Source: Raillietiella orientalis
Taxonomy: Eukaryota
Direction of reading: 5' to 3'
DNA: 64,000 nucleotides
NCBI GenBank assembly: GCA_036172245.1
Contig: JAYWIR010000139.1
Span: 1-64,000 of the forward strand
A model generated the notes under the pieces. The model was not told the DNA's origin and made no database searches. It saw nothing but the letters and a program-made list of their open reading frames with translations. Positions 7,576 through 59,747 of the stretch are shown here, piece by piece. The position numbers and the translations under genes were made by a program. The first letter of the stretch is position 1, and each line of letters opens with the position of its first letter.

Positions 7576-7687
7576 AGTGCAGACGTGTTTCCGCGTCTTT
7601 CCGCGCCAACGATCGGGCAACTTTGTGCCTGCGTTTTTGCTCGCACTTGTGTGTTCCTGTGCAATCTGCCAAGTAGCATAGTGCAAC

Positions 7688-8933
7688 ATGGCCAGTACAC
7701 AGGATAGTGTGGAAGAGCAAGCCACTGGATGCACTTCAGCTGCACTTGAAGTGGCCGCATCCTCCATAATGGTTTCCTCGCCCCCGGTGAGGAGTTACGC
7801 CGTCGTTACCTCCCAAAGACCAGGATCCTGCGATGCGGAGTTCCAGGCATATGTGTCATCAGGATACATGCCTGCACTCCGTTATAAGGTCAGTGGGCCA
7901 CTTAACGGGAGAATCGGTCCTGAGCTCAATGATGAGCTCGTCCGGATAGGCGTTCGCGAGGAGGAACTCCTTGCCATAATGCCTGCTGGCAGGATGGAAT
8001 ATACGAAGATTCGGTGCAAGAACGCAGCACTTGTGCAGCGCCTTCTCCGTACGCCGTTGACCATCAATGGCAAGGAAGTCCTACCTACGACGATTGACGA
8101 CTCTTTTGTCGTTCAATTGTGCGACATCGAACCGGAAATCTCCGACCGCGATGTCGTAAGTGTGCTGGCGAAGTTCGCCACCGTGCACGCTCTGTGGAGG
8201 AGGCCAAATCCTCTTAAGGATTTTCCCTCTGTCCACATTGGACAAGCCTCCGCGCGGATCACCGTCGCGAACAGGCGTGTTGTGCCTGAGCAGCTGCAGG
8301 TGAACGGCACGGTCGTTCACCTGTGGTTCATAGGCCAGACTCGCGCGTGCGAGCAGTGCGGCAAGGAGGGGCACCGAATTAAAGAGTGCCCCTCTCCAAG
8401 ATTCCGCTATTGCAAAGATTCCGGCCACGAAATCAAAAAGTGCCCGGTACTTGCAAGAAAAAGAGCCGCAGCGGAAATTCGTCGGGTTCAAGAGACCACT
8501 GCACGAAAAGCCGCAGCGGCAAATAAAAAACGTCGTCCGCAAAAACTCGAAAACAACCACGAGCGATCCGCGGATAAAAAGAAAGCATCCCCGCCCGCAA
8601 CGCCCCGAAAGGGGAAAGTCACGGCGGGTAAGCCAACTAAAAAGGGGCGCGAGGGTTTGACGCGTGCCGTGCCTTCCCTCTCTGCCGAACTCGCAGGCAC
8701 ATTTCCGAGCCTGGAACCAGGAAATCTCCGTAACACCCTGGAAGGAAAGGTAGGAAAACAGGAAGATCGCAACAGTGCGAAGACTTCTTGCCCCGTTCCA
8801 TTGTCCCTTCGGAGTTCCGGACAGCCCCACTGCAGCGAAGGCCCCACTGCAAAGGCTACGAAAGCCGTAAAAAGCAGCGTCGCGACGAGCAAAAGCACGC
8901 TGCATGCAGTCGCTTCATCGCCGAGTCGGAAGG
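7688..8933 (+). pseudogene. C2 ORF1, gag-like protein, interrupted by B1; continues at 25829-25950
   Basis: ATG at 7688. Knuckles CEQCGKEGHRIKEC and a degenerate FRYCKDSGHEIKKC. Homologous to C1 and C3 ORF1. The listed ORF beyond 8933 is read-through into the B1 3' UTR. Confidence 0.85.
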
Positions 8934-9067
8934 TTTCCCCAAGTCCCACAAGGTGTGGGGTAAGTTTATTTTTCTACAAAAATACAAAATTTACATTCGC
9001 ACTCTCATTCACTCAATACAAACATTTTGCACTTGGGGGTCCTTGGGTTGCACTAGTGTTCTGCTTT

Positions 9068-12000
9068 TCAGGGGGAAATTCCAGCTGGATGGTCCCGGGC
9101 GTCGTCCCGGATCCTCTTCAGGATGAATCGGTACGTCCAGGAGTGGATCTTCCCGCAGTTCCTGATGCCGATTTCCCTCTTCAAGTGCCCTTGTAGGATC
9201 TCCATCGGTGGTGCGACTCTCCTGGCTTTCCTCATTTTCCACCACCGCACAAGTATGGCGGTGATGAAGAGGGCTATGGTCGTCCTCACCATGGGATTGT
9301 AACAGGGAACATTACCATCCCCATGAAACATCCCGGCGAGGATCTCCATAACGGACTTGTTGGTAAGTCCTATGATCCTTTTCAGGATCAGTCAGTCATG
9401 CAGCAGTGTGAGACACGTCAAGACGTGAAGTCTCGTGTCGTCGTCTCCACATGCTGCGCAGTCTCGGTCTTGCCGTCTTCCTGTGAAGTGCTGCAATCGG
9501 GACCCACTCTGGATTCCTCCGTGATAAAACATCAGGAGGTCATCCTGGGTGCCCGACGGAAGGTCACTCCTCCAGAGCGTCGTGCCGATCGCTAACAGGT
9601 TGAACCGTTCACTCCCGTAGCGTTCGGTGGCTTCCTGGAGGGCACTGGTGTCACGGTCGTTTTCTTGGATAAACCTTCGGAGGTTTGTTCTGGTTACCCT
9701 CGACCAAGCGAAGTCGTTGTGGTTGAACCACACTTCGCGGGTCCTGTGGGTAAACCTTCCTAACATCATCTCTGTATACCGAAGTATACGTGTTTGATGT
9801 AGGTAGCCTCCTCGCCTCCACTCCTGGATTTGCAGTAGGGTAACTCTGGACCGCTGGTACATCCAGCTTCTCGTGTCCGGCGGGACAGGAAGCAACCAAG
9901 GGATCACCAGGATGGACTCGTCCTGCCAGAGTTCCCTGCTTCGCGGCACGATCTTGATTTGGTGCTTCCGCACCAGCCGTTGCTTCCTCCTCCAGGTCGG
10001 GTCGATTGTTATCCATTCCCCTACTTTGCCTAGCAGCGCAGTCATCACGCCTTTCGAGTTGTTAAGCAACAACGCGTAGGCCCTGTGCGCCGCATACGGC
10101 CAGTCATCCCAGTAAGTGACAATGTCCAGGATGTGTCGCGTATCCATGATTTCCATGGAATGTGCAAGCGACTTCATCCCGGAACCGCCTTCTTACCTGG
10201 GACGACAAAGGGGTTTCAGTCTTACTCTTGGGCGATAGTGGCCCCAGAGTGTTTTTCTTTGCAGCTTGTCGAACTCCCTAGTAGTGTCCTTGTTCATCCT
10301 AGCGAAGGCCGCCCCGAAGAGCACTTTCGGAAGGAGTACTCCGTTCCATATGTTGGCTTTTCGCTTTATCCCAAGGTCCGTTCGGGTGTACTTGGCTGCT
10401 TCCTTGGCCGTTTTCCCCAGGATTTCTTTCCACAGCAGCTTCGACGCAGAGCCGTCGCCGATGTAGACTCCCAGGTACTTGGCCGTGTCCACCGTACGGA
10501 ATCCACTATCCGTTAGAGTGGATAGATCCAGTATTCCGACGGGCAAAAGCTGGCTCTTCTGGGAATTGATTTTTAAGCCCAAGCCCTGTTCCATCTGGTC
10601 CACCACATCCAGAAACGCACGCTGATTTTTCTCTCCCTTGATGAAGAAGAGTAGATCATCGGCGTATGCCAGATGAGTAAGACGCTGGCTATCGATGGTA
10701 ATCCCGCTTAGTCGTCCGCTCTTCTCGATAAAGGACGACAACGCCTCCATATAGATGACGAACAGCATCGGACTTAGCGAGTCGCCCTGTCGGACTCCTC
10801 GTTCCATCCTGATTGCTGCCGTCTCCTGGCCGTTGATCTTGATCCGGCAGTACTGGTTCTGGAGCACCGCCCTCACGAAGTTGCTGAAGTGTTTCGGAAG
10901 CCCTAGCTTCTCCAGAACCTTCAGCAGCTTCCCGTGGTCGATGGAGTCGAAGGCCTTCTCCATGTCAGTGAACACCAGCACCAGGTTCTCGCCGACGTAT
11001 CGACTGAGTCCAACAGTGGCCTGGGCACATTTGACATTGTCCGACATGTGTCGTCCTGGGACTGCACATGTCTGGACCGGAGAGATCAGCCTCGACATGA
11101 CCTTGCCTAAGCGGTTGGACCAGATCTTCGCCAACCACTTGACATCGGAGTTTAGAATCGAGATTGGCCTCCATTGGGCGATCTGGGTAGAGTCGCCTCC
11201 TTTCGGCAGCAATCTCATCCGACTCTCGTAGAAGGACCGAGGTAGTCTGCCTTGTTCCCGGATGCAGAGGGTCAACTGGTGGAACAAGCGCAGGTAGGCG
11301 TGCAGGTACCGCTGATAGTGCGTGATGGGTACACTGTCAGGGCCCGCTGCCACGTCCTTGCGAAGTTGCCCAAACGCAGTCTTCACCTCTTCTTCGGAGA
11401 ACTCCTCCTCCAGTCTGTTCCGCTGGAGGTCGTCGGTCCTCTTCTCGAGATAGCTCGAGAAGGCCTGTTGACTAGAGCGACACAGCTGTTGTCGCCTGAA
11501 GTGTTTCGTGTAATGCCTGTGAAAGGCATCCACGATGTCCTCAGACGACTGTCGCTTTTGGCCGTCGTACTGGATGCAGAAGATATCTGTTGCCAGATTT
11601 CTCTTCTCCAGCACGCTGACTTCCCCTTTTATGTTATTGAGGACGTACCGTCTCTCGTACTGATCGAAGTACTTTGAGAGGGAGCGATCTTGGATGTTCA
11701 GCTCCCGGTACGCCTCTTGCCTCAAGCGCCTATCCCCGAACTGCATGTTCGCAAACAGGTGTATCCTGTGTTTCAGGCTGTCCCAGTCGGCGACTCTTCG
11801 GATTGTTGGTGCCCTCAGAATCGCCTCCAGGACAGCCTGATGTCCGGGATGGGTTTCGAACCGGGCGGGCATGCTGATGAGCGCTGCCCTGGTGCCTTGC
11901 CTCCGCCGAGGATTCTCCGTTCTTAGGGAAAACCGCACCAGGGGGTGATCGGACACCGTAGTCATAGTGTCGCGAAACCCCTGGATGCGGTTCCCAAGTT

Positions 12001-12586
12001 CGGTGCTGTGCAGGACGTGATCGATTGGCTTGTGGCTTGCTGTTCGCCAGTCCAGTCCGAACTCCTCGGATAGCCGTCGATACGCCGTCCTTCCTCTGGC
12101 GTCTTCCGAATGAATGATCTCATCCAAGATGTTGAGATCGCCAGCAACTATCATGACGTCCTTAGGGGCGACCTTTTGCCGGAGTGTTGCATGCAGCGCC
12201 TCCGCACAATGATGTTTTAGCCTGTGCGGCCCGTACACGTTCACCAGGATAAGGTGAACAGTCGCGGACCAGGCCAGTCGCACGCCGATGATTCGTCCGG
12301 GTTGGGGACAGAACACTTCCAGAATAGTGGGGGCTAAGTGGTTCTTTATTAGCACCGCCACACCCTTCGTGTTCCGTTCCCCTTCGTTGACGAACATCTG
12401 CCCGTTGAATCGCCGTTCCATTCGTTGGCTTATCTCCAGACCCATCCTGTGGGACTCCTGCAGGCACACGATGTCTTGTTGTGCGATGGTCCGCACAATC
12501 CTTCTTCTTTTTCCCTGGTCGACCACACCGTTTACGTTCCAGGAGGCGATGTTAATCCTCCTGGCGGTCGATAGGGAAGAGGCCAT
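9068..12586 (-). pseudogene. B1 ORF2 (APE-RT-zinc finger) with two in-frame nonsense codons (10193-10195 TAA, 9392-9394 TGA)
   Basis: Collinear with the intact B2 ORF2, which has GAA and TGG at these codons. Motifs SWNVNG, CLQE, GDLN, SDH, QGDSLSP and YADD. Confidence 0.92.
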
Positions 12587-12599
12587 AAAAGGGGAAGAC

Positions 12600-14387
12600 C
12601 TATTTTTTGGCCTTCCTGAGCTTCTTCTGTCTGAGAGAGCGTGCTCTTCCAGACAATGAAGAAGCAGCGGGCTTCTCGCTGCCGGCGTCACTCTCCGTAC
12701 CTGTGAGGTCGGTAATTTCCGCCTCCTCCGTAGAGTGTTCCGCCTGCGCGATCAATTTTCGAGATAGCGCCTCTATCTCGACCTTGGCGCAGAAGTTCGC
12801 CTTCACGTCGAGAAGCTGTTCCTCTAACTTCTCGCGTTCAGCGACATCCACCACCTGGTTGATGTTCTCTTGTGCAGTGCAGATCTTCTGCAAGATTTTC
12901 TCTTGCTGAGGACCGCTCTGCACCTCCATGATCTCCTCCGCCAGTGTTGCCAACTCCTCCGTAGTCTGCAGAGCCTCCTGCGACACTTTAGTGGCTTCCT
13001 GTCTCTCTTCCTTCGCGCCTTCCTGCGCTACCTCCATCTTCTCGCCTTCCTGCTCTGCTGCTTCCTGGATTTGAGGAGTTCCTTGCTCCTTGACGAGCAT
13101 CCTCCTTTTTCCCTTCTTTCCCACTTCTATGAAGCCGTCCGCCGACACCGGGACAGCTTCTTTCACTTTTTTCTGCCTTCCTGCCTTCTGAGGCTGTTCG
13201 GCCTCCTTGATGTTTCTCTCTCTCACGGGAGAGAGACCTCGAATCCTTCTGCAGTTTTCAAACTCCGGACAGCTCCATTTCGCATGTCCGTGTTTCTTGC
13301 AAAAGGAGCACACCTCCGGATGCGGGCAGTTTCGGACTTGATGTCCTACTTTGCCGCAGCGGAAACAACGACACGTTGGGCAAGAGCCGGTTCTGTGACC
13401 GAACTGCTTGCATCCAGTGCAGAATACCGGTTGTTGCCGGTAACGCACATTCACTCCCTGGGATTGTTCGTCAATAACGGCCAATCCAGGGATCACCGCT
13501 TCCTCCCTCAACTTCATCTTGGCGATCATGTCGCCAGAAAATATGTTTCCAGAGAAGTTCTGGAAATCAAGGTCCAGAACTTCCCCAAACTGCTCCAAGT
13601 AATTCCACACCGCTAGTTGCGGGGTGAGGATGGAGATGCCGTTTAAAAAGACGGTTGTGTATGGCATCTCGCCAATTCCACAAACCATCCGTCCTTGTAT
13701 ATTGATCCCCTTCTGGATCAATCGCTCTCTAATGTTTTCACAGTCTGTAAAGACTGTGAACCCGTTGTTTGATGGAATGATCGCCTGAATGCGATCAAAG
13801 TCTATGTCCGTCTTGTCGAGGGACAAATAGACCTCCCTGATGTTATTAAATTTTATTAGCCCCTTCTTGAAGATAATGGGCTTCACGTTGGGGCCTATTT
13901 CGACTATTGGTCGGTCCACTTTTAGTACTTTTCCGCTAAGCGGCTTACCGAATTTCCTAGGTGGGTGGACACTCGCCTGTCCAGCCGCCACCGACGCATA
14001 AGAAAAGGGCTGCGACGCCGCAGCCGAACAAGATGGCGTCGCTCCCTGCACCTCGTAGACGCCCGCGGGTCCCGCCTGGGACGCCACCGCCGCGGGCGCA
14101 AACCTCGACGTTGCCGCCGTTACCGCTGCGGGCGGCACCCTCGGCATCGCCGCCGCAGGCGCGACCTTCCTCGCCGCGGGCACGATCCTCGGCGTCGCCG
14201 CCGCGGGCACGACCTCCGCCGTCGTCGCCGCGTGCACGACCCTTGGCATCGCCGCCGCCGGCGCAGCAAAGCCCGCCGCGGGCGCGATCCTCGGCATGCC
14301 TGCCACCGCCTCGCCGTTGCCGCACGTTACCTCCATGGCTTCCATGGGGGACGACGGTCTCTCCACTCCTCTTCTAGGTGCCTGCAT
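12600..14387 (-). CDS. B1 ORF1, intact 595-aa gag-like protein (Ala/Pro repeats, RRM-like region, three CCHC knuckles, Glu/Lys-rich probable coiled-coil tail)
   Basis: Knuckles CTGCKQFGHRTGSC, CFRCGKVGHQVRNC and CSFCKKHGHAKWSC. The stop lies 13 nt upstream of the likely ORF2 ATG at 12586. Confidence 0.9.
   Translation of the reverse strand: MQAPRRGVERPSSPMEAMEVTCGNGEAVAGMPRIAPAAGFAAPAAAMPRVVHAATTAEVVPAAATPRIVPAARKVAPAAAMPRVPPAAVTAATSRFAPAAVASQAGPAGVYEVQGATPSCSAAASQPFSYASVAAGQASVHPPRKFGKPLSGKVLKVDRPIVEIGPNVKPIIFKKGLIKFNNIREVYLSLDKTDIDFDRIQAIIPSNNGFTVFTDCENIRERLIQKGINIQGRMVCGIGEMPYTTVFLNGISILTPQLAVWNYLEQFGEVLDLDFQNFSGNIFSGDMIAKMKLREEAVIPGLAVIDEQSQGVNVRYRQQPVFCTGCKQFGHRTGSCPTCRCFRCGKVGHQVRNCPHPEVCSFCKKHGHAKWSCPEFENCRRIRGLSPVRERNIKEAEQPQKAGRQKKVKEAVPVSADGFIEVGKKGKRRMLVKEQGTPQIQEAAEQEGEKMEVAQEGAKEERQEATKVSQEALQTTEELATLAEEIMEVQSGPQQEKILQKICTAQENINQVVDVAEREKLEEQLLDVKANFCAKVEIEALSRKLIAQAEHSTEEAEITDLTGTESDAGSEKPAASSLSGRARSLRQKKLRKAKK
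14060..14310 (-). repeat. Imperfect GC-rich coding repeats in B ORF1 (AAAMPRVxPAA-type units); equivalents at about 19700-19940, 25320-25560 and 58570-58800
   Basis: Recurring CTCGGCATCGCCGCCG and CCGCGGGCACGA motifs; the repeated peptide is visible in the translation. Confidence 0.75.
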
Positions 14388-14570
14388 CCTGGCAGCTGGT
14401 CTTGCTGCACGGGACCACTGCAGGTCTTTTGCTGCGATCTCCTCGCCGCTTCTTTTCTAGTTTCGTATGGAAAACTTCCCCTCTCCGGGCACACACGAGC
14501 ACAATTAACTGATTACTTTGTCAAGCGCACAATACTTTGAGCCGCGGAGCAAGTTCACCGACTCGGCAGG

Positions 14571-17500
14571 TTTCCCCAAGTCCCACAAGGGGTGGGGTAA
14601 TTTTATTTTTCTATAAAAATACAAAATTTACATTCGCACTCTCATTCACTCAATACAAACATTTTGCACTTGGGGGTCCTTGGGTTGCACTAGAGTTCTG
14701 CTTTTCAGGGGGGAATTCCAGCTGGATGGTCCCGGGCGTCGTCCTGGATCCTCTTCAGGATGAATCGGTACGTCCAGGCGTGGATCTTCCCGCATTTCCT
14801 GATGCCGATTTCCCTCTTCAAGAGCCCTTGTAGGATCTCCATCGGTGGTGCGGCTCTCCTGGATTTCTTCATTTTCCACCACCGCACAAGTATGGCGGTG
14901 ATGAAGAGGGCTATGGTCGTCCTCACCATGGGATTGTAACAGGGAACATTACCATCCCCATGAAACATCCCGGCGAGGATCTCCATAACGGACTTGTTGG
15001 TAAGTCCTATGATGCTTTTCAGGATCAGCCAGTCATGCAGCAGTGTGAAACACGTCAAGACGTGAAGTCTCGTGTCGTCGTCTCCACATGCTGCGCAGTC
15101 TCGGTCTTCCCGTCTTCCTGTGAAGTGCTGCAATCGGGACCCACTCTGGATTCCTCCGTGATAAAACATCAGGAGGTCATCCTGGGTGCCCATCGGAAGG
15201 TCACTCCTCCAGAGCGTCGTGCCGATCGCTAACAGGTTGAACCGTTCACTCCCGTAGCGTTCGGTGGCTTCCTGGAGGGCACTGGTGTCACGGTCGTTTT
15301 CTTGGATAAGCCTTTGGAGGTTTGTTCTGGTTACCCTCGACCATGCGAAGTCGTTGTGGTTGAACCACACTTCGCGGGTCCTGTGGGTAAACCTTCCTAA
15401 CATCATCTCTGTATACCGAAGTATACGTGTTTGAGGTAGGTAGCCTCCTCGCCTCCACTCCTGGATTTGCAGTAGGGTAACTCTGGACCGCTGGTAGATC
15501 CAGCTTCTCGTGTCCGGCGGGACAGGAAGCAACCAAGGGATCACCAGGATGGACTCGTCCTGCCAGAGTTCCCTGCTTCGCGGCACGATCTTGATTTGGT
15601 GCTTCCGCACCAGCCGTTGCTTCCTCCTCCAGGTCGGGTCGATTGTTATCCATTCCCCTACTTTGCCTAGCAGCGCAGTCATCAGGCCTCTCGAGTTGTT
15701 AAGCAACAACGCGTAGGCTTTGTGCGCCGCATACGGCCAGTCATCCCAGTAAGTGGCCATGTCCAGGATGTGTCGCGTATCCATGATTTCCATGGAATGT
15801 GCAAGCGACTTCATCCCGGAACCGCCTTCTTCCCTGGGACGACACAGGGGTTTCAGTCTTACTCTTGGACGATAGTGGCCCCAGAGTGTTTTTCTTTGCA
15901 GCTTGTCGAACTCCCTAGTAGTGTCCTTGTTCATCCTCGCGAAGGCCGCCTTGAAGAGCACTTTCGGAAGGAGTACTCCGTTCCATATGTTGGCCTTTCG
16001 CTTCATCCCAAGGTCCGTTCGGGTGTACTTGGCTGCTTCCTTGGCCGTTTTCCCCAGGATTTCCTTCCACAGCAGCTTCGACGCAGAGCCGTCGCCGATG
16101 TAGACTCCCAGGTACTTGGCCGTGTCCACCGTACGGAATCCACTACCCGTTAGAGTGGAGAGATCCAGTATTCCGACGCGCAAAAGCTGGCTCTTCTGGG
16201 AATTGATTTTTAAACCCAAGCCCTGTTCCATCTGGTCCACCACATCCAGAAACTCACGCTGATTTTTCTCTCCCTTGATGAAGAAGAGTAGATCATCGGC
16301 GTATGCCAGATGGGTAAGACGCTGGCTATCGATGGTAATCCCGCTTAGTCGTCCTCTCTTCTCGATAAAGGACGACAACGCCTCCATATAGATGACGAAC
16401 AGCATCGGACTTAGCGAGTCGCCCTGTCGGACTCCTCGTTCCATCCTGATTGCTGCCGTCTCCTGGCCGTTGATCATGATCCGGCAGTACTGGTTCTGGA
16501 GTACCGCCCTCACGAAGTTGCTGAAGTGTTCCGGAAGCCCTAGCTTCTCCAGAACCTTCAGCAGCATCCCGTGGTCGATGGAGTCGAAGGCCATCTCCAT
16601 GTCAGTGAACACCAGCACCAGGTTCTCGCCGACGTATCGACTGAGTCCAACAGTGGCCTGGGCACACTTGACATTGTCCGACATGTGTCGTCCTGGGACT
16701 GCACATGTCTGGACCGGAGAGATCAGCCTCGACATGACCTTGCCTGAGCGGTTGGACCAGATCTTCGCCAACCACTTGGCATCGGAGTTTAGAATCGAGA
16801 TTGGCCTCCAGTGGGCGATCTGGGTAGAGTCGCCTCCTTTCGGCAGCAATCTCATCCGACTCTCGTAGAAGGACTGAGGTAGTCTGCCTTCTTCCCGGAT
16901 GCAGAGGGTCAACTGGTAGAACAAGCGCAGGTAGGCGTGCAGGTACCGCTGATAGTGCGTGATGGGTACACTGTCAGGGTTCGCTGCCACGTCCTTGCGA
17001 AGTTGCCCAAACGCAGCCTTCACCTCTTTTTTGGAGAACTCCTCCTTCATTCTGTTCCGCTGGAGGTCGTCGGTCCCCTTCTCGAGATAGCTCAAGAAGG
17101 CCTGTTGACTAGAGCGACACAGCTGTTGTCGCCTGAAGTGTTTCGTGTAATGCCTGTGAAAGGCATCCACGATGTCCTCAGACGACTGTCGCTTTTGGCC
17201 GTCGTACCTGATGCAGAAGATATCTGTTGCCAGATTTCTCTTCTCCAGCACGCCGACTTCTTCTTTTATGTTATTGAGGACGTACCGACTCTCGTACTGA
17301 TCGAAGTACTGTGAGAGGGAGCGATCTTGGATGTTCAGCTCCCGGTACGCCTCTTGCCTCAAGCGCCTATCCCCGAACTGCATGTTCGCAAACAGGTGTA
17401 TCCTGTGTTTCAGGCTGTCCCAGTCGGCGACTCTTCGGATTGTTGGTGCCCTCAGAATCGCCTCCAGGACAGCCTGATGTCCGGGATGGGTTTCGAACCA

Positions 17501-20185
17501 GGCGGGCATGCTGATGAGCGCTGCCCTGGTGCCTTGCCTCCGCCGAGGATTCTCCGTTCTTAGGGAAAACCGCACCAGGGGGTGATCGGACACCGTAGTC
17601 ATAGTGTCGCGAAACCCCTGGATGCGGTTCCCAAGTTCGATGCTGTGCAGGACTAGATCGATTGGCTTGTGGCTTGCTGTTCGCCAGACCAGTCCGAACT
17701 CCTCGGATAGCCGTCGATACGCCGTCCTTCCTCTGGCGTCTTCCGAATGAATGATCTCATGCAAGATGTTGAGATCGCCAGCAACAATCACGACGTCCTT
17801 AGGGGCGACCTTTTCCCGGAGTGTTGCATGCAGCGCCTCCGAACAACGATGTTTTAGCCTGTGCGGCCCGTACACGTTCACCAGGATAAGGTGAACAGTC
17901 GCGGACCAGGCCAGTCGCACGCCGATGATTCGTCTGGGTTGGGGACAGAACACTTCCAGAATAGTGGGGGCTAAGTGGTTCTTTATTAGCACCGCCACAC
18001 CCTTCGTGTGCCGTTCTCCTTCGTTGACGAACATCTGCCTGTTGAATCGTCGTTCCATTCGCTGGCTTATCTCCAGACCCATCCTGTGGGTCTCCTGCAG
18101 GCACACGATGTCTTGTTGTGCGATGGTCCGCACAATCCTTCTTCTTTTTCCCTGGTCGACCACACCGTTTATGTTCCAGGAGGCGATGTTCATCCTCTTG
18201 GCGGTCGATAGGGAAGAGGCCATAAAAGGGGAAGACCTATTTTTTGGCCTTCCTGAGCTTCTTCTGTCTGAGAGAGCGTGCTCTTCCAGACAATGAAGAA
18301 GCAGCGGGCTTCTCGCTGCCGGCGTCACTCTTTGTACCTGTGAGGTCGGTAATTTCCGCCTCCTCCGTAGAGTGTTCCGCCTGCGCGATCAATTTTCAAG
18401 ATAGCGCCTCTATCTCGACCTTGGCGCAGAAGTTCGCCTTCACGTCGAGAAGCTGTTCCTCTAACTTCTCGCGTTCAGCGACCTCCACCACCTGGTTGAT
18501 GTTCTCTTGTGCAGTGCAGATCTTCTGCAAGATTTTCTCTTGCTGAGGACCGCTCTGCACCTCCATGATCTCCTCCGCCCGTGTTGCCAACTCCTCCGTA
18601 GTCTGCAGAGCCTCCTGCGACACTTTAGTGGCTTCCTGTCTCTCTTCCTTCGCGCCTTCCTGCGCTACCTCCATCTTCTCGCCTTCCTGCTCTGCTGCTT
18701 CCAGGATTTGAGGAGTTCCTGGCTCCTTGACGAGCATCCTCCTCTTTCCCTTCTTTCCCACTTCTATGAAGCCGTCCGCCGACACCGGGACAGCTTGTTT
18801 CACTTTTTTCTGCCTTCCTGCCTTCTGAGGCTGTTCGGCCTCCTTGATGTTTCTCTCTCTCACGGGAGAGAGACCTCGAATCCTTCTGCAGTTTTCAAAC
18901 TCCGGACAGCTCCATTTCGCATGTCCGTGTTTCTTGCAGAAGGAGCACACCTCCGGATGCGGGCAGTTTCGGACTTGATGTCCTACTTTGCCGGGAAACA
19001 ACGACACGTTTGGCAAGAGCCGGCCCTCTGTGACTGAACTGCTTGCATCCAGTGCAGAACACCGGCTGCCGAAGGCACATTCACTCCCTGGGATTGTTCG
19101 TCAATAACGGCCAATCCAGGGATCACCGCCCCCTCCCTCAACTTCATCTTGGCGATCATGTCGCCAGAAAATATGTTTCCAGAGAAGTTCTGGAAATCAA
19201 GGTCCAGAACTTCCCCAAACTGCTCCAAGTAATTCCACACCGCTAGTTGCGGTGTGAGGATGGAGATGCCGTTTGAAAAGACGTTTGTTATGGCATCTCG
19301 CCAATACCACAAACCATCCGTCCTTGTAATTGATCCCCTTCTGGATCAATTTGTCTTGTCGTTTTCACAGTCTGTAAAGACTGTGAAACCGTTGTTTGAT
19401 GGTGGAATGACTGCCTGAACGATCGTGCGCTCATGTCCGTCTTGTCACCGAGGGACAAATAGACCTCCCTAGATGTTATTAACTTTATTAGCTCCTGTCT
19501 TGAAGAGGTTGAAGGGTTTGCTGTTGGGCCCATTTCCTGACTATTGGTCGGTCCACACTTCTTATACTTTTCCGCCAAGGGCTTACCGAATTTCAGGTGG
19601 ACACTCGCTTGTCCAGCCGCCACCAACGAATAGGAAATGGGCTGCGCCGCCGCAGCCGAACAAGATGGCGTTTCACCCTGAACTGCGTGGACGCCCGCGG
19701 GTCCTGCCTGGGACGCTGCCGCCGCGAGCGCAACCCTTGACGTCGCCACCGTTGCCGCCGCGGGCGGCACCCTCGGCATCGCCGCCGCAGGCGCGACCTT
19801 CCCCGCCGCGGGCACGATCCTTGGTGTCGCCGCCGCGGGCACGACCTCCGCCGTCGTCGCCGCGGGCACGACCCTTGGCCTCGCCACCGCCGGCGCAGCA
19901 AAGCCCGCCGCGGGCGCGATTCTAGGCATGCCTGCCACCGCCTAGCTGTTGCCGCACGTTACCTCCATGGCTTCCATGGGGGACGACGGTCTCTCCACTC
20001 CTCCGCCAGGTTCCTGCATCCTGGAAGCTGGTCTTGCTGCACGGGACCACAACAGGTCTTCCGCCGCGATCTCCTCTGCGCTTCTTTTGTTGTTTCGTCT
20101 GGAAACTTCCCCTCTCCGGGCACACACGAGCACAATTAACAGATTAATCTGTCGAGCGCACAATACTTTGAGCCGCGAAGCAAGT
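14571..20185 (-). mobile_element. Family B copy B2, full-length, head-to-tail with B1; ORF1 frameshifted
   Basis: Near-identical to B1 with an offset of 5637 bp over ORF2. Target-site copies at 14555-14570 and 20186-20202. Confidence 0.93.
14705..18223 (-). CDS. B2 ORF2, uninterrupted APE endonuclease / reverse transcriptase / C-terminal zinc-finger polyprotein (1172 aa from ATG 18223)
   Basis: Motifs MASSLSTAKRMNIASWNING, LQETH, AGDLN, SDH, WRPISILNSDAK, RQGDSLSPMLF, AYADD, KYLG and CAACGDDDTRLHVLTC. RT motif DMEKAFD is altered to DMEMAFD. Confidence 0.93.
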   Translation of the reverse strand: MASSLSTAKRMNIASWNINGVVDQGKRRRIVRTIAQQDIVCLQETHRMGLEISQRMERRFNRQMFVNEGERHTKGVAVLIKNHLAPTILEVFCPQPRRIIGVRLAWSATVHLILVNVYGPHRLKHRCSEALHATLREKVAPKDVVIVAGDLNILHEIIHSEDARGRTAYRRLSEEFGLVWRTASHKPIDLVLHSIELGNRIQGFRDTMTTVSDHPLVRFSLRTENPRRRQGTRAALISMPAWFETHPGHQAVLEAILRAPTIRRVADWDSLKHRIHLFANMQFGDRRLRQEAYRELNIQDRSLSQYFDQYESRYVLNNIKEEVGVLEKRNLATDIFCIRYDGQKRQSSEDIVDAFHRHYTKHFRRQQLCRSSQQAFLSYLEKGTDDLQRNRMKEEFSKKEVKAAFGQLRKDVAANPDSVPITHYQRYLHAYLRLFYQLTLCIREEGRLPQSFYESRMRLLPKGGDSTQIAHWRPISILNSDAKWLAKIWSNRSGKVMSRLISPVQTCAVPGRHMSDNVKCAQATVGLSRYVGENLVLVFTDMEMAFDSIDHGMLLKVLEKLGLPEHFSNFVRAVLQNQYCRIMINGQETAAIRMERGVRQGDSLSPMLFVIYMEALSSFIEKRGRLSGITIDSQRLTHLAYADDLLFFIKGEKNQREFLDVVDQMEQGLGLKINSQKSQLLRVGILDLSTLTGSGFRTVDTAKYLGVYIGDGSASKLLWKEILGKTAKEAAKYTRTDLGMKRKANIWNGVLLPKVLFKAAFARMNKDTTREFDKLQRKTLWGHYRPRVRLKPLCRPREEGGSGMKSLAHSMEIMDTRHILDMATYWDDWPYAAHKAYALLLNNSRGLMTALLGKVGEWITIDPTWRRKQRLVRKHQIKIVPRSRELWQDESILVIPWLLPVPPDTRSWIYQRSRVTLLQIQEWRRGGYLPQTRILRYTEMMLGRFTHRTREVWFNHNDFAWSRVTRTNLQRLIQENDRDTSALQEATERYGSERFNLLAIGTTLWRSDLPMGTQDDLLMFYHGGIQSGSRLQHFTGRREDRDCAACGDDDTRLHVLTCFTLLHDWLILKSIIGLTNKSVMEILAGMFHGDGNVPCYNPMVRTTIALFITAILVRWWKMKKSRRAAPPMEILQGLLKREIGIRKCGKIHAWTYRFILKRIQDDARDHPAGIPP

Positions 20186-20202
20186 TCACATCAATCGGCA
20201 GG

Positions 20203-25812: not shown

Positions 25813-25950
25813 TCACCGACTCGGCAGGAGAGGTGCAATCTCCCGACTGTCAAGAAGGTGACTCCGTTGCCGTTTTTTAAAGGCGTAGCGAAAGCAACGC
25901 CCCCAGAGAACGCAGCGCAAATCCCGGAGGTTTCCGCAACTACTGTCGCG

Positions 25951-27659: not shown

Positions 27660-28011
27660 GAACGGCGTAATCCGGTGACCCCTGCGACCTCTCGCCCATC
27701 CATACCCCGTCCCCGTTCGCTCGGTAAAATTTCCGGTGCCCATGCTTTTATCCCCGTGTCTTCCAGAGAGATCCCAAAGACCCTTATGTCCCTATTCATT
27801 ATTGTTTTTATTTTATTTTGGTGTCTTTGTGTTTCCCGCCTCCCCACACCGTTCACAAAACTGTTACTCTAGCCTGCGTGCCAGCAATATTCTCTTTATT
27901 CTTGTTCAGTCGTCGGTTGGGAGTTTGGTTCCCAACTGGTTTATTTTGTATAATTGCTTTTTTTTTGGTTATGTTATATGGAATAAACGCCCCGGCGTGA
28001 CCGGGTGAGAA

Positions 28012-43534: not shown

Positions 43535-43690
43535 CCCCCTCCTCCATGGGTAACGGCGCATCGAGCGGGTCACCCTCAGGTAAGGTCGCGAATACCTGTT
43601 GGCCCTTCTCCATGGGGGCGAGCTGTTCAGGCTCGGCGACTGCAGGGAGGACTTCGCCCCTCTGATCACCCTTCTCCATGGGAGTGGCCG
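43535..43690 (-). repeat. Three degenerate units of about 66 bp encoding PMEKG/PMEEG in the E1 ORF1 tail
   Basis: CTCCATGGG recurs at about 43543, 43609 and 43675. Confidence 0.65.
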
Positions 43691-48961: not shown

Positions 48962-51900
48962 ATGGACGACCCCGCGTTGGTAGCACAGGGATGCTAGCGA
49001 AGCCTCGGGTGTAGGGCGTTACGGACGAAGAGGGTGCGCAAAGCGTCTCTGGAGTTGCCTTCGGGGATAACCAGGGTCTTGGCAAAGCGTTATCACAAGG
49101 GATGGAGAGCAACACAATTTACTAACAGGTGGGGGAGGTAATCCTTCTCCCCGCACCTGACACAATTGGGGATGACACCTTCTCGCGTCCAGTGGTGTCT
49201 GCGTGCGTTGCAGGGAACACCCCAATGCAACACCGAAAGTGCCGACTGTTGCCACTTCATGGGGAGGGTGCGGGAGTCCATGTGCACTGGGGGCCCCTCG
49301 ACATGTTCCTCCGGAACATCCAGTTGCTCACCTCAGCGTAACAGTCCGTGTGGGGTGGTCCTCGGTGTCGCAGCGTTGGTCAGCTGACCCATTCTCCAAT
49401 CCCCGAACTTCTTTCCTTTGCGAGCGATGTTGAAGGTAATCTTCCATTGTGCCGCGACGTCGCTGCCCATATGTTCCCTTAAAGTAGGCAGTAATGCAGC
49501 AAGGGAACTTCCTTGTTCCAACGCTCTCTTTCGGGGATCCTCGATGATTTCTCGGAGCGTGCGGTGGGCGCACGGCCCGACCAGAGCTATTCGCTCCAGT
49601 TGCGGGCTCTGCTCCTGAGTCATTGCCCACGTTCGAAAGGTTTCCTGCAGCCGGGCAGGACCGTTTGCTTGGCGTACGAAGATGGATCCCGCTTTGTTTC
49701 TTACGAGTTTGGCCGCCCTTTGAAGCTGAATTCCGCAGTGGCAGATCGGCCTTCGGAGTGCAAAGTAGGAGAAGAGTCCCGCGTTGATGTTGACCTGCTC
49801 GACGAGGAGGCGTGCAGGGACGCACCAGGGGGTGCACCAGTTCCTTACCATGAAAGCAATTATCCAGAACTGGAGCTGAAGCTCCAGCCGCTTCAGCGTC
49901 AGGGTACCTGGACCACCATTCCGACGCAGAGCGCACAAGTTTGCAAGACGGACATGGGGCCTCCCTCTGCCACAAAGGGCGATCTCAAGGAGGTCCTTAG
50001 TCCTTTTTGGATCTCCGCTGAGAAGGGGCAAACAAAAAGCAAGAAGCGGAGGAGAGGAGCCGCGAACGCGTTCCACGCAGCGACCCATTCGTGGAGGAAG
50101 AACCTGCCGTCCTGGAACGGGCCGATCGCCGCCTGAGCCTTCTGAAGGCAGCCGGACCACTCTTCCGCAGGGGGATAATCCCCCAACGGCACATCAAGGT
50201 ACTTAAAGTACCTTAATATGGGGATCCCCATACGGACCCAGTCCTGCTGTCCTGCCCACGCCGCTCCGACTGGCATTAGGGACGACTTCGCCCTGTTCAT
50301 CGTAAGTCCGGTTCCCCGATGCAGCAGGTCGAGGAACTCCTCGACCGCTGTAGACGGGGTGGAAATACGGAGCAGCAGCAGCAGATCGTCCGCATATACC
50401 GAAACCGTCGGCGTACCGGGACAATCGCGCTGCAGGTGCGCCGGAGTCTCCCTGTACGCTCTCAGCACCAATTTTAAATAGGCGCTAAACAGCAAGGGGC
50501 TCAGGCTGTCTCCCTGCCGTATGCCGCGTCGCACCGGTACGCCGTGCACGGAATTCCCACTGAAAAAGATGTTAGTAAGCGCGTCGCGCCAGCTGGAGCG
50601 CAGGTAGGCTAACAAAGAGGTCGGGAAGCCCAAGCGTTTCAGAAGCTCCATCAGGAGATTCTGGACGACGCTGTCGAATGCTTTACGCAATGGGACAGCG
50701 ACCGCAAGGGATTTCTTACCCACCCGACCGTCCCGTTTTCCACCAACAAACGCCCGGAATTCCGGCTGTTCAATAAGCCCCTTCTTTGTTGGAGCTCTGA
50801 CCATGTGGAAGCGTGGAACAGGTTCGCCTCCATGCTCCGCCCGGGAACAGCATATGTGTGTTCCGGGCTGATGAAGATGTTAACAACCCGTCCCAGACGC
50901 TCTGCCCACAGCTTGGCTAGCAACTTTGCGTCTACATTTACTATTGTGATGGGATGCCAGTTGTCCATGCTCCTCAGGTCTCTTCCCTCAGGGAGGAGCC
51001 GCACCTTTGCTAAACAAAACGAGGTGGGAACGTCACCTGTCTCGCAAATCTGCAGGGCGAGCTGATGTACCAGAAGAGTAAGCTCTGCCGCGGAAGTTTG
51101 ATAAAAATTTGCAGGCAGGCCGTCCTCTCCTGGAGTTTTCTTGAGCTTTCCGATGACCGAGATGATCTCGTCCATCGTGAAAGGCTCGTAAAGGCTCTTT
51201 TTTGTTCTCATCTTCGATCGCTGAAGCATCTTCTGGAAGCAAAAGTCGTGAGACATCATGCTATGGAAACGCCCTGGCGTACAGCGAGGAGTAAAATTTA
51301 CGGACAATCCCGCGCTTCTGAGCAGGAGCCGAGTGCTCCCGGTTCTGGTCGTCCAGCAAGCTGGCCGATGCGTATTGCCAGGCTTGCCTCTCGGCTCGCG
51401 CTCGATACTCCGCTAGCCTGCGCATGTCTCGGGTTCTTGCATAACGTCGCGCCTGTAGATAGGACCTATGGTTACGCGGCCCCTCCCCAAATCCCACAGG
51501 TAGGCGATGCAAAGGGAACTGATCGCAGAACTCCTGGACCGGCCACTTTCAGCGGTCCCAGTCCTGAAGCGTCCGCATCCTGAAGCTCCGTATGAACGCA
51601 TGGATATGTTCCGCCGCGTCCGGGAGCTTCAGCCAGTCCCATGACAGACGGTACGCTGATGAGGGGAGCCCTTGTCGCGCGGATGCACTTCGAACACTAT
51701 TTAGCCATGGTCCGAAAGCTCGGACGGTAACTTCCCGCCTTCGCCCACGCGAGAGCATTGGTGCGGGTCAAGGTACACGTGATCGATGCTGCGTTCCATG
51801 TCCGTATCTCTGGCCAGCAAGTTGCACGTATGCATTTGTGCGCACAACTCGTTGGAGCGGTCGTTCAGTGTACCCTGCGCACCTGAAACCAGGCGCAGGT

Positions 51901-53426
51901 TTAAATCACCTGCGATCAAGTGCGCTTTACGAACAATTACTCTGGTCAGTCATTCGAATCCGAGGGCAAGGTAGAATTCTCTAATAGCCTTAGCCCTCAA
52001 CGCGTCGTTACTGCTAGGACCGTACAGGTTGGTGACGACCACGTCGATTGAGTCGGACCAGCTGAGAGTCAGCCGAACGACGCGACCGGCGTCATCAAAC
52101 CGTACGTCCTTTTTGCGGCCTCGATGGAAGGCCGGAGCAGGAAGGCGACACCTCTTAATTTCGCGGTGCTGCAGCGCCACAGCAGCCATCCACCCGAGAT
52201 CCGTTCCATCTGCTGCGTTCGCACAGTGCAGACGTTTTCGCGTCTCTCCGCGTCCGCGATCGAGCATCTTTGTGCGTGAGTTTTCGCTCGCAATTGTGTG
52301 TTTCATGGAAGTGGACGAAGCAGCGTTGTGCAGCATGGCCACTTCTGGAAATGGTGTGAAGGAGACAGCCGTTGAATTCGAATCAATTGAAATGGAAGCG
52401 GCTGCATCCTCCGTGACGGTTTCCTCGCCTTCAATGAGGAGCTACGCCGCTGTCACCTCCCAGAGAGCATGACCCTGCGCTGCGGAGTTTTAGGCTTATG
52501 TGGCATCCGGCTGCATGCTTGCACTCCGTTTTAATGTCAGTGGGCCCCTTAACGGGAGGATCGGGCGAGCTCAACGACGAGCTCTTCCGGATCGGGGTTC
52601 GGGAGGAGGAGCTTCTTGCCATCATGCCTGCAGGCAGGATGGAATATACGTAGATACTAGATAAGTGTGCTGGTAAAGTTCGCCACCGTGCACGCTCTGT
52701 GGAGGAGGCCCAATCCTCTGAAGGATTTCCCCTCTGTCCACATTGGACAAGCCTCCGCGCAGATCACCGTCGTGAACAGGCGTGTTGTGCCCGAGAAGCT
52801 GCAGGTGAAAGGCACGGTCGTTCACCTGTGGTTTATAGAACAGAATCGCGCGTGCGAGCTGTGCGGCAAGGAGGGACACCGAAAGAAGGAATGTTCCACC
52901 CCGAAATTCCGCTGCTGCAAAGAAACCGGGCACGAAATAAAAAAGTGCATGGTCCTTGCAATGAAAAAAGTAGCAGCGGAAGTTCGTCGCGTTCAAGATA
53001 CCAACGCACGAAAGGCCGCTGCCCCCAAGAAAAAACAGTGTCCGCGGAGTCTTGGCAAAAGACCCAAGCAATACGCTGCTATACAAAACGCGTCCCCGCC
53101 CGCAACGCCCCAAAAGGGAGAAATCGCGGCGAAGAAGCCATTTCAAAAGGGGCGCGAGGGCGCGACGCGTGCCGTGCCCGCTCTCGCTGCCGTACTCGGA
53201 AGCAATTCTCCAAGCCAGGAACCAAGAAATTTCCGAAGACCCTCAGTAGGAAAGGTAGGAGAGCAGGAAGATCGCCACCGGGCGAATACTTCCAGCTCTA
53301 ACCCGCTGTCCCTTCGGAAATCGGCAAAGTCCCAATCCTACGCAGGGGCCTCTGCGTAGGATAGTCGCCAGCGGCGCGCCGTGCGAAATCACTCTGCAGA
53401 CAGTCGCCCCTTCACCGACTCGGCAA

Positions 53427-56400: not shown

Positions 56401-59074
56401 TCCGTTTTTAGGAAAAACCGCACCAACGGGTGATCGGACAGAGTGGTCAATGTGTCTCGAAAATCCTGAATGCGATTCCCTAGTTCGGTGCTGTGAAGGA
56501 CGTGATCGATCGGCTTGTGACTTGCTGTTCGCCACACCAGTCAGAACTCGTCCGACAGCCACCGAAACGCCTTCTTCCTGAGGCGTCCTGGAATCTTGTG
56601 TGTTCGTCTAGGATATTAAGATCGCCAGCAACGATCACGACGTCCTTGGACGCGACCTTCTCCCGGAGTGCTGCATACAGTGCCTCCGCACATCGATGTT
56701 TGTACCTGTGTGGCTTGTACACGTTTACCCAGGAAAGGTGAACGTGAGGGGTCCAGGCCAGTCATACGCCGATTATACGTCCCTGCAAGCGACAGAAGAT
56801 TTTCAGAATGGTAGGAGCCAGTTGGTTCTTGACCAAGACCTCCACACCCTGCGTGTTTCGTTCTCCTTCGCTGACGAGCATCTGCTCATTAAAACGTCGT
56901 TCCATTTGCTGGATGATTTGGACACCCAACGTGTGGGTCTCCTGCAGGCACACGATGTCTTGCCGATGTCTTGTTGTGCGATGATCCGCACAATCTTCTT
57001 TCTCTTCCTCTTGTCGACTAACCCATTTACGTTCCAGGAGGCGATGTTGATGTTCCTGGCGGTCGACAGGTATTAGGTAATAAAGGGGAAGACAGACTTT
57101 TTGGCCTTCCTGAGCTTCTTCTGTCTGGGAGAGCGTGCTTTTCCAGACGATGAAGAAGGAGCGGGTTTTGCAGCTAGCAGCGTTATTCTCCGTCCCGGTG
57201 AGCTCGGTGAATTCAGCCTCCTCCGTAGAGTGTTCTGCTCGCGCGATAAGTTTCCTAGGTATATCCTCTATCGCCACCTTTGCGCAGAAGTTCGCCTTAA
57301 TGTCGAGAAGCTGTTCCTTTAGTCTCTCGCGCTCGGTAACTTCCACCACCTTATTCACCGTCTCCTGTGCGTTGCAGATCTTCTGCAGGATTTGCTTTTG
57401 CTTGGGCCCGCTTTGCACCTCGATCACTTCTTACGCCAGTTTAGCCAGCTCTTCGGTGGACTGCAGGGCCTCCTAAGACAATGGAGTGGCTTCTTTTTCC
57501 ACCTTTGCTTCTTCCAGTGCTGTCTCCATTTTCTAGCCTTCCGCTGCTCTTTCTGGGGTAAGAGAGGCTTTCTGCTCCTTGATGAGCATCTTTTTCTTTC
57601 CCTTTTTACCGACTTCAATAAGACCGTTCGCCGATACCGGCAAGGCTTCCTTAGTCTTCTTCGGCCTTCCTGCCAACTTTTGAGGCCCTTCCGCCTCTTT
57701 TATATTCCTGTCTCTCACGGGAGAGAGTCCTCTGATCCCTCTACAAATGGCGAATTGAGGGCATCTCCATTTACCGTGCCCATGCGTCTTGAAGAAGGAA
57801 CAAACCTCCGGCTGCGGCAGTTTTGGACTTGTTGTCCTATCTTGCCGCAGCGGTAGGATCGAGATGTTGAGCAAGCGCCTGCCCTGTGGCCAAACTGCTT
57901 GCATCCAATGCAAAATATTGGCGGTTGCCGATAACGCACTTTCACACAATGTGATGGCTCATCAATGACTGCTATCCCAGGGATCACCGCGCCTTCCTTT
58001 AATTTTATGTTGGCGATCATGTCGCCAGAAAAGATTTTTCCTGAGAAGTTCTCGAACTCGAGGTAGAGAACTTCCCCAAACTTCTCCAAGTATTTCCACA
58101 CCGTTAGTTGGAGTGTGTAGATGGATATGCTATTTGAAAACACGGTCGTGTATGGCATCTTGCCAACGCCACAAACCATCCTTACTTGAATATTGATCTT
58201 CTTCTGGATCAATCCTTCCCTAATGTATTCACAGTCCGCGAAGACCGTGAACCCGTTGTTGCTGGGAATGATTGCGTGGTTACGATCAAAATCTATGTCT
58301 GTTCTGTCTAGAGACAGATATATCTCCCTGATATTGTTGAACTTTATCAATCCAGTCTTAAAAATAGTAGGCTTCACCTCTGGCCATAACTGGACGATAG
58401 GCCGATCTACCTTTTTGACTTTCCCTCTTAGACGTTTGCCGAATTTTCTTAGCGGATGCACACTGACCTTCCCCGCCGCCACCGATGCGTTCGAAAACGG
58501 CTGCACCTCCTCAGCCGAGCAAGATGGCGTCGCATCTTGCGCTCCCTGCACAGTGTGGACGCGCGCTGGTCCCGCCTGGGACGCCGCCGCGAGCGCAACC
58601 TCGACGTTGCCGCCACCGCTGCTGCGGGCGCAACCCTTGGCATCGCCGCCGCAGGCATGTCCGTTGCCTCCGCGGGCGCGATCCTCGTCGTCAACGCCAC
58701 AGGTACGACCTTCACCGTCGCCGCCGAAGACGCGATCCTTGGCATCGCCGCCACCGGCGCAGCGAAGCCCGCCGTGGGCGCGATCCTCGGCATCGCCGTT
58801 GCCATACGTTACCTCCATCTGCAAGGGGACGTCGGCCTCTTCTCTCCTGCTAATGCCTGCATCCTTGCAGCTAAAACTGCCGCTGAGGAAGTTTGAAGGT
58901 CTTCCGCTGTGATCTCCTCGGCGCTTCTTTTGTAGTTGTATGAGCAGATCCTACGCAGCACACTCTTGTCCACACTCACTTTCTTCTGGAAACTTTTTTT
59001 CTCCGGGCACACACGATCACAATTAACTAATCAACTGTCGTCGTGCGCGCTATACACTGAACCTTGAAGCCAGT
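53427..59074 (-). mobile_element. Family B copy B4, full-length, divergent subfamily, both ORFs broken
   Basis: Collinear with B1 but has many substitutions and a different 3' UTR interior. Flanked by TCACCGACTCGGCAA (53412-53426) and TTACCGAATCGTCAA (59075-59089). Confidence 0.9.
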
Positions 59075-59747
59075 TTACCGAATCGTCAACAAAGGAGCAA
59101 TCTTCCGACTTCCAAAAAGGCGACTGCGCTACCTCCTTTTCAAGGCGTGGCGAAAGCTACGCATTTAGATACGGTAGCGAAAACTCCGAAGGTTTCCGAG
59201 ACGAAAGTCGCGGAAGCTTCCGGAAATCGTAACGGCAAGTGGGAGATTGTCGAGAGGAGAAAAGAAAAATCTCACAGGAAGGCTTCGCAACCTCCATCTG
59301 TTAGCTGTTTTAAGGCAAACAACAGCCGCGTGAAGAAGAAAACCCGCGCGGAGGGTTCTTCTGCCCTGGAAAAAGCCAGCGCTGTCAACGCGTGCAATTT
59401 CGCCTCTATGACCGCCGAGCAAACGATTCCGGTGCGATCGGACGGATGCAAGCGCACGCCAATCGTGCGAGCATCAGATTCCGTAAAGGAGTCCTATAAC
59501 GGCGCTCAACGACGTGTTACTGGCACGGGATCGAGAATTTGCAGGGCTGACGCCGTGAGGCGTGATACACACTCCGCGGAACGGCGAGTGCTCTCCCCGG
59601 GACCCGTAGGTTCCGCACTCGGGGAGAAGCACCGATTACGCGCAGCACGGTGGAGACCGGTGGCAACCGCTCCCTCCATCCCTTCGTACTGTCTGCTGCC
59701 CGCTCGCCGGGAGAGGCGAGCACCACGGCCTCGCTATCCCAGCCGTG

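Follow-up and report, generated by a model that had tools for sequence, protein, structure and literature searches.

The stretch studied here, positions 1 to 64,000 (forward strand) of contig JAYWIR010000139.1 from Raillietiella orientalis (NCBI GenBank assembly GCA_036172245.1; in the following 'the window'), consists almost entirely of sequence of long interspersed nuclear elements (LINEs). We focused on one of these elements, here called B, of which four copies were found. B1, B2 and B3 form a head-to-tail tandem array with a period of ~5.64 kb and 93–96% identity when the window is compared with itself (locus 1), while B4 lies at a second place (locus 2). At both loci B interrupts the first open reading frame (ORF1) of another LINE family, C. 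All B copies are on the minus strand and C ORF1 is on the plus strand, so that B is antisense to C in either case, as had been stated in a preliminary description made from the letters of the sequence alone. The two C copies (C2 and C3), the four B copies and the short motif at the boundaries of B are arranged as follows.

7574..8917, plus strand: left part of C2; 5' end ACAGTGCAGACG.., ATG at 7688, a single CCHC knuckle in ORF1, reading frame uninterrupted until the B site
8918..8933, plus strand: left copy of the B duplication in C2 ORF1, TCGCCGAGTCGGAAGG
8934..14554, minus strand: LINE B1, full-length; ORF1 open, ORF2 with 2 stops and no frameshift
14555..14570, plus strand: single motif copy at the B1/B2 junction, TCACCGACTCGGCAGG
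14571..20185, minus strand: LINE B2, full-length; ORF2 intact, ORF1 broken
20186..20202, plus strand: degraded motif copy at the B2/B3 junction, TCACATCAATCGGCAGG, 17 bases with one extra base plus changes
20203..25812, minus strand: LINE B3, full-length but decayed; ORF2 with 6 stops and 12 small indels; mosaic, some blocks nearer to B4
25813..25828, plus strand: right copy of the B duplication, TCACCGACTCGGCAGG, after which C2 ORF1 resumes in phase
25829..28011, plus strand: right part of C2; 122 bp of ORF1, a 2.39-kb internal deletion, the C-terminal half of the reverse transcriptase (565 codons open), 3' end with hairpin and ..GAGAA
52223..53411, plus strand: left part of C3, decayed ORF1
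53412..53426, plus strand: left duplication copy at B4, TCACCGACTCGGCAA
53427..59074, minus strand: LINE B4, old full-length copy of a diverged B lineage; ~80% identity to B1–3, ORF2 with 10 stops
59075..59089, plus strand: right-hand motif copy of the B4 duplication, TTACCGAATCGTCAA, sharing the frame of the ORF at 59027–59836
59090..63661, plus strand: right part of C3; rest of ORF1, endonuclease, reverse transcriptase and 3' end

B is a complete, autonomous LINE of ~5.6 kb on the minus strand that carries an endonuclease of the apurinic/apyrimidinic type (APE). ORF1 of B1 extends from stop to stop over 12603–14456 (618 codons) and contains three CCHC knuckles, and ORF2 of B2 extends over 14708–18388 (1227 codons, first ATG at 18223), where Pfam matches were obtained to Exo_endo_phos (E 2e-15, residues 69–269) and to the reverse transcriptase (RT) domain RVT_1 (E 2e-33, residues 517–763), and a CX2C..H..C motif is present at the C-terminus. 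The knuckles of ORF1 and the C-terminal motif of ORF2 would fit the L1/Tx1 group and are not exclusive to it. When we searched protein databases with B2 ORF2, the best relatives were 21–32% identical (~25%) and were unnamed or generic RT proteins, so that B has no close family member among them. All of the B copies (4/4) are full-length with precise ends and have the same orientation. The 3' terminus of B consists of a hairpin and three or four A residues: two predicted RNA hairpins close the young B and C copies (8934–9010, 14571–14647 and 27935–28011), the last directly before the short A tail, with z values between -2.7 and -4.5 for B1/B2 and of -2.9 for C2. In the old copies B4 and C3 the hairpins are lost.

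Searching the window for the motif TCACCGACTCGGCAGG with at most 3 mismatches we found 5 matches, compared to 0.88 expected, and none of 100 shuffled sequences reached this number. Four of the 5 matches are boundaries of B (8918, 14555, 25813 and 53412). The fifth, TCCCCGACTCAGCAGG at 5657–5672, lies inside a LINE termed D (described below), has 2 mismatches, marks no boundary and is unoccupied. The copies at 20186 and 59075 are beyond the 3-mismatch limit and yet, as read directly from the sequence, stand exactly at B boundaries. The earlier claim of a motif at every B boundary was thus borne out, with six copies of 15–17 bp, four of them recovered by the search and two by direct reading. Each internal junction of the array holds one motif copy only, therefore the motif behaves as a target-site duplication of 15–16 bp which is shared between neighboring B copies, and one copy per junction is also the pattern expected from repeated insertion into a regenerated target. 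Position 15 of the duplication is G in both flanking copies of locus 1 and A in both of locus 2, which pairs left with right inside each locus.

Parts of this structure were also found in a public sequencing run, X1. Its contigs are 96–98% like the window, bridge the junction between the left part of C and B1 and show a B-to-B tandem joint, and hence the structure is not an assembly artefact. The difference of 2–4% indicates that X1 comes from another strain or haplotype. In two of these contigs (window 8914–8930) the left motif copy reads TCGCCGACTCGGCAGG, which is nearer to the other copies than TCGCCGAGTCGGAAGG of the window. We also looked in X1 for alternative flanks of B; the 16 loose ends listed, of 16 + 103 in total, were all short spurious matches. 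The depth in X1 was 14–24 at the termini of B, 10–18 in the C flank and 50–120 in the interior of ORF2, figures that are contig word depths and not copy numbers, and this pattern faintly hints at few B ends elsewhere. In two further public runs, X2 and X3, only 35-bp chance matches to the window were found.

Next, we regarded the interrupted gene of C more closely. Position 8918 is the start of a codon in the frame of C2 ORF1, and the site reads SPSRK in C2 and SPTRQ in the motif. Both C ORF1 copies in the window (2/2) are occupied by B at the same codons, and both C copies have the same 5' end, ACAGTGCAGACG. The preliminary description had proposed that removal of B restores C ORF1. This holds for the right flanks: in C2 the flank is in phase once the array is taken out together with one motif copy (..SSPTRQERCNLPTVKK.., by sequence reading and tblastn), and in C3 it is in phase as well (LPNRQ, ORF 59027–59836). 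The host genes are damaged elsewhere, however. From position 25950, 122 bp past the right end of the array, C2 has lost 2.39 kb comprising the rest of ORF1, the APE and the first half of the RT (the counterpart in C3 is 59216–61602), and the left part of C3 contains 5 stops, a 140-bp deletion and small indels.

The homology between the loci extends beyond B and C into the surrounding LINE D and a neighboring LINE, Z. It is collinear over 405–1146, 4307–8933, B and 25829–28059 in locus 1 and 48221–48961, 48965–53426, B4 and 59090–63708 in locus 2, and the D/C and C/B junctions are identical at both. For whole segments we calculated Kimura two-parameter (K2P) distances between the loci of 0.28 for Z, 0.19 for D, 0.256 for C ORF1, 0.23–0.24 for B, 0.34 for the 122-bp flank on the right side of B and 0.155 for the RT of C. 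The layers differ in these distances, but B lies within the range of its flanks (0.155–0.34), and these plain distances decide nothing. The same applies to the earlier argument that B4 is more diverged than the RT regions of the hosts, which is numerically correct (0.23–0.24 versus 0.155) but insufficient, as C ORF1 and the right flank are as diverged as B (0.256 and 0.34). On the collinear homology and these distances alone, a single duplication of a pre-nested unit is the simplest reading.

For better evaluation of these distances we considered the kind of substitutions, because duplicated dead elements should differ neutrally while separate retrotranspositions should differ partly by changes that were filtered in active lineages. 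Between B1–3 and B4 the ratio of nonsynonymous to synonymous divergence (dN/dS, Nei–Gojobori) was 0.29–0.33 for ORF2 and 0.20–0.22 for ORF1, and the K2P distance of the untranslated regions (UTRs) was 0.33–0.54, close to the synonymous divergence. Raw dN/dS was dropped as proof for C and D as too lenient, since neutral simulations with biased mutation give 0.57–0.9 with this estimator. It was replaced by a test that compares nondegenerate with 4-fold degenerate sites, stratified by CpG context and base class, for which neutral simulations gave median odds ratios of 0.93–1.22 even with a 3x GC bias and a 10x CpG rate. With this test we obtained odds ratios of 0.42–0.44 for B1–3 compared to B4 (p 6e-17 to 1.5e-15), and for the host layers 0.51 for D and its counterpart D' (p 6e-6) and 0.23 for Z and its counterpart Z' (p 3e-8).

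Inside the array, B1 and B2 gave an odds ratio of 0.99–1.0 for ORF2, like copying in place, and we found 0.58 for B1–B3 (p 0.0016) and 0.69 for B2–B3 (p 0.019), so that part of the differences of B3 from the other two were filtered by selection. Between alignment columns 2400 and 3000, B3 has 39 states in common with B4, compared to 23 for B1/B2, and therefore the array holds more than one B lineage. Its copies are mosaics in which blocks of 2% difference between B3 and B1/B2 alternate with blocks of 11–14%, and B1 is near B2 in ORF2, with neutral-looking differences, and near B3 in ORF1. This patchwork indicates that sequence exchange has occurred inside the array too. B2 ORF1 contains 16 clustered small indels and B3 ORF2 contains 12. 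A calibration of neutral age from the indels of B3 was set aside, because these 1–2-bp changes may be assembly errors in the repeat.

How the two nests arose can be explained in several ways. One ancient segmental duplication of the whole D–C–B nest, followed by decay in place and by tripling of B through unequal crossing-over between the 16-bp repeats, would need no specificity of B at all. The collinear homology through all junctions, the identical D/C and C/B junctions, the position of the B distance inside the range of the flanks and the neutral-looking ORF2 differences of B1 and B2 would all be expected in this case. However, such a duplication predicts neutral divergence in every layer, whereas the odds ratios are 0.42–0.44 for B, 0.51 for D and 0.23 for Z compared to ~1 in simulations, and it predicts equal synonymous divergence, whereas 4-fold sites have diverged by as little as 0.11 (C RT) and by as much as 0.45 (Z). 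As to decay, a duplication should leave both nests equally damaged and a recent copy of an old nest should carry inherited stops; in the 2138 codons that were aligned for Z, D and C together, we counted 1 stop in locus 1 and 15 in locus 2. B2 ORF2 is moreover still open over its 1227 codons, a frame that stayed open under simulated neutral change in 0 of 400 cases at 10% divergence and in 1.5% at 3%, and frameshifting indels between the loci are scarce: B1/B2 differ from B4 over ORF2 by only 4 indels beside about 630 substitutions, and in ORF1 6 of 11 indels are multiples of 3. Because the kind of substitutions, the indels, the open frames and the asymmetric decay all point the same way, we rejected a single duplication as highly improbable.

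The apparent selection could also have been imported, if the nest was duplicated once and active relatives elsewhere later replaced the elements of locus 1 through ectopic gene conversion. That sequence exchange takes place is shown by the patchwork of the array (2% versus 11–14% blocks, with B1 resembling B2 in ORF2 and B3 in ORF1), and the RT region of C is oddly well preserved at both loci. This explanation would, however, require replacement from end to end of four elements from three or four families, UTRs included, with junctions and duplications left exact, and conversion by donors located elsewhere would be prone to remove the nested insertion. The termini of B show no excess depth over the C flank in run X1, so that few donors are visible, which counts only weakly. 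We consider such overwriting very unlikely. Finally, D together with C may have been duplicated, and B alone may have entered each of the two C paralogues separately, in which case B would be site-specific and C would not. The difference between C2 and C3 is compatible with neutrality (odds ratio 0.74, p 0.063), and C shows the lowest divergence of all layers. Against this stand the selected divergence of the enclosing D (0.51, p 6e-6) and likewise of the neighboring Z, and the 1 versus 15 stops in the host layers. An odds ratio of ~0.6 would be expected for an old dead copy compared to a young one, which would match C. This possibility, too, we regard as unlikely.

We conclude that B is most likely site-specific for C ORF1 and has inserted repeatedly at one site of ~16 bp, a reading which we hold to be probable. 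The data support independent insertions of B1–3 and B4 in a fixed orientation rather than one duplication of a pre-nested unit. This had been favored before on other grounds, and it is now supported by the mainly synonymous differences between B1–3 and B4, the unequal decay of the nests and the distinct B sublineages in the array. Locus 2 is an old nest and locus 1 a young nest of the same architecture.

Several observations weigh against site-specific insertion of B. Only two host loci and four B copies were examined, all of them within 64 kb, and the collinearity of the loci extends through three layers of elements, as a segmental duplication would give. The odds ratio for C2/C3 is not significantly different from neutral, and the first dN/dS values for C and D (0.39–0.52) were only modestly below the 0.57–0.9 that this estimator gives in neutral simulations. 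The many 1–2-bp indels in B3 and in B2 ORF1 may in part be assembly errors in the repeat, and the X1 depths are word depths of contigs from which 103 further loose ends are unlisted. No relative was found in two scans of metagenome contigs: a protein-guided scan gave 54 pattern matches, none of them a relative, and a 19-base pattern from the 3' end of B gave 7 loci, none of which has BLAST similarity to the window, so that these are chance matches. The order of ages is not clean either. The C-terminal half of the RT of C (25962–27656 and 61618–63310) is the least diverged segment and has no stop in 564 aligned codons at either locus, while B4, which is necessarily younger than the C3 copy it interrupts, has 10 stops in 1207 codons. 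The RT of C is oddly preserved (K2P 0.155) in comparison with its ORF1 (0.256), despite the decayed ORF1 of C3 and the enclosed B4. This order could be due to sequence exchange between C2 and C3, or B4 may have been defective from the moment it inserted.

If B is site-specific as we propose, its insertion could proceed as follows. The endonuclease of B would recognize the ~16-bp sequence TCACCGACTCGGCAGG, which encodes SPTRQ in ORF1 of the different LINE family C, and would nick the plus strand (the sense strand of C) just 3' of the motif, after ..GGCAGG, so that the nick primes reverse transcription of the B RNA. The other strand would be cut 15–16 bp away. Every resulting B copy would be full-length, run antisense to C and have the duplicated motif on either side, and each such insertion would inactivate the C copy. 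As the duplication regenerates the target, later B copies would land beside earlier ones and a head-to-tail array would build up. While the orientation, the precise full-length ends and the constant duplication are observed, we infer the order of the nicks and the extent of the recognized sequence, and also that the motif itself is recognized rather than the chromatin or a wider context.

The preliminary description had overlooked that C repeats the behavior of B one level further out: both C copies lie at one and the same D site and are flanked by a 15-bp duplication. The parts of D and D' are the following.

3927..7558, minus strand: left part of D; APE from about residue 108, RT and 3' end
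7559..7573, plus strand: left 15-bp duplication of C2 inside D, ATCTCCTGCGCTCGT
28012..28026, plus strand: right 15-bp duplication of C2 inside D, ATCTCCTGCGCTTGT
28027 to about 28680, minus strand: right part of D; N-terminus of the APE and end of an ORF1
48965..52207, minus strand: left part of D', without the last 380 bp present in D
52208..52222, plus strand: left duplication of C3 inside D', ATCTGCTGCGTTCGC
63662..63676, plus strand: right duplication of C3 inside D', ATCTCCGTTGCTTGG, much diverged
63677 to the end of the window, minus strand: right part of D', continuation of D'

C is thus located within the minus-strand LINE D at the identical point of the endonuclease-coding region at both loci. 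The duplication that flanks it in D, ATCTCCTGCGCTYGT, covers the EQAQE codons, which follow the catalytic LLQEIH motif at a distance of 8 residues. To the right of C3, both the duplication and the part of D' beyond it are far more diverged than the sequence on the left side. C may therefore be specific for the EQAQE codons in the endonuclease region of D, as B is for C ORF1. The case for C is weaker than that for B, because C2 and C3 alone are not significantly non-neutral; its support comes from the enclosing D copies being independent of one another and from the unequal numbers of stops. A sequence with 3 mismatches to the C target, ATCTCCTGGGCGTCT (43280–43294), is found unoccupied at the homologous APE position of a further LINE, Y.

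Beyond the 3' end of D an ORF1 of element Z follows at both loci, so that the order of D and then Z recurs in locus 2. In locus 1 the minus-strand LINEs E, D and Z, which are related to one another, are arranged head to tail (1–1381, 3927–7558, 28027–28680 and 28686–31443): E has its 3' end at about 28686 (..GGGTCTAAAAAA), D is 5'-truncated in its ORF1 and Z has its full 5' end at about 1381. The right part of D is 79% identical over 28553–28678 to positions 2–128 of Z, and Z is therefore an element of the D family. In locus 2, Z' comprises 740 bp, is cut on both sides and is joined directly to D' (48961–48965, compared to 1147–4306 in locus 1). The 380 bp which D' lacks correspond to 3927–4306 of D, and a deletion across the Z'/D' junction is likely. 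The whole arrangement can be read as two independently built LINE 'Russian dolls', one old and one young, in which clusters of the D family stand head to tail, C inserts only at EQAQE (15-bp duplication) and B only at SPTRQ (16-bp duplication), and in which every tier inactivates the one beneath it and relies on it for places to land. We regard the chances that such a hyperparasitic food chain exists as evenly balanced.

Mobile elements that serve as targets of LINEs are known. In one report, LINEs of the Tx1 type target transposons, with Tx1 in the piggyBac-type element Tx1D, Tx1-Mar in Mariner-N4_AMi and Tx1-9_AMi in Harbinger, while Tx1-8_Crp and Tx1-4_AMi target long terminal repeat (LTR) retrotransposons, so that the crocodilian Tx1 families hit Mariner, Harbinger and LTR elements (PMC4494074). 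The same text reports tandem insertions 'sandwiching a TSD', that is a target-site duplication, for SINEU-3, an element mobilized by Tx1-type LINEs (PMC4494074). B is similar to these elements: it is a LINE with APE and RT, it occupies one constant position in a mobile element present in many copies, and its target-site duplication measures ~16 bp. B differs from them in that it hits, in antisense, the ORF1 coding region of another autonomous LINE, and its host C seems itself to occupy a fixed site in a third LINE.

The L1-type LINEs Zepp and ZeppL of green algae insert into their own copies and form clusters (PMC8226300). Here, too, LINE inserts into LINE and tandem or nested clusters are formed almost only of LINEs, and the minus-strand head-to-tail order of the outer E, D and Z is suggestive of Zepp-like clustering. 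In contrast to B, Zepp as described there targets its own family and mostly leaves 5'-truncated 3' ends, whereas the target of B is a single nucleotide position in another family, and 4 of 4 copies are full-length. We therefore did not retain B as a Zepp-like self-targeting cluster. R1 and R2 are LINEs specific for ribosomal DNA (PMC1919474, PMC6530143). B is like them in its sequence-specific endonuclease, which for B is inferred, in the precise junctions, in the multicopy target and in the inactivation of the unit that is hit. The target of R1 and R2 is a host gene array and not another parasite, and R2 uses a restriction-like endonuclease. A preprint on the centromeres of brown algae deals in its relevant passages with LTR elements and has no bearing on B.

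The targets named for known site-specific LINEs in the accessible portions of the literature are multicopy genes of the host, microsatellites, DNA transposons and LTR elements. In a shallow full-text search, with the subscription literature mostly uncovered, we found neither a LINE that specifically targets coding sequence of another LINE family nor a chain of such dependencies. Site-specific LINEs serve as models of DNA address recognition by retrotransposons and are under development as tools for targeted insertion. If our reading is true, a LINE with its address in the coding sequence of another autonomous LINE would clearly exemplify a parasite living on another parasite of the same element class, possibly as part of a chain of dependencies. 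It would predict coupled boom-and-bust dynamics between the families as well as selection on the host LINE to alter the SPTRQ codons, and would provide a naturally defined 16-bp target for studies of endonuclease specificity. A repeated nest architecture in repeat-rich regions need then not mean a segmental duplication.

Family A (1382–3926 and 36734–42896), whose 3' end is ..CCGGAATCTCYA without an A tail, has no fixed target; it was considered as a further site-specific layer and rejected, since A3 lies within the APE region of another LINE (G/Y) and A1 between Z and D. A1 is 5'-truncated and 94% identical to A3, and it directly adjoins the 5' end of Z on one side and the 3' end of D on the other. 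In A3, which is full-length, a single frame of 988 codons joins ORF1 to the APE; this copy splits its host into G (33781–36955) and Y (42976–45186) near APE residues 207–243. A further LINE family is found at 31685–33253, 45303–48231 and 33781–36955. Its member H is on the plus strand, 5'-truncated and ends at 48231 inside the ORF1 of Z', while LINE F is a 3' fragment with 91% identity and LINE G an 81% relative on the minus strand.

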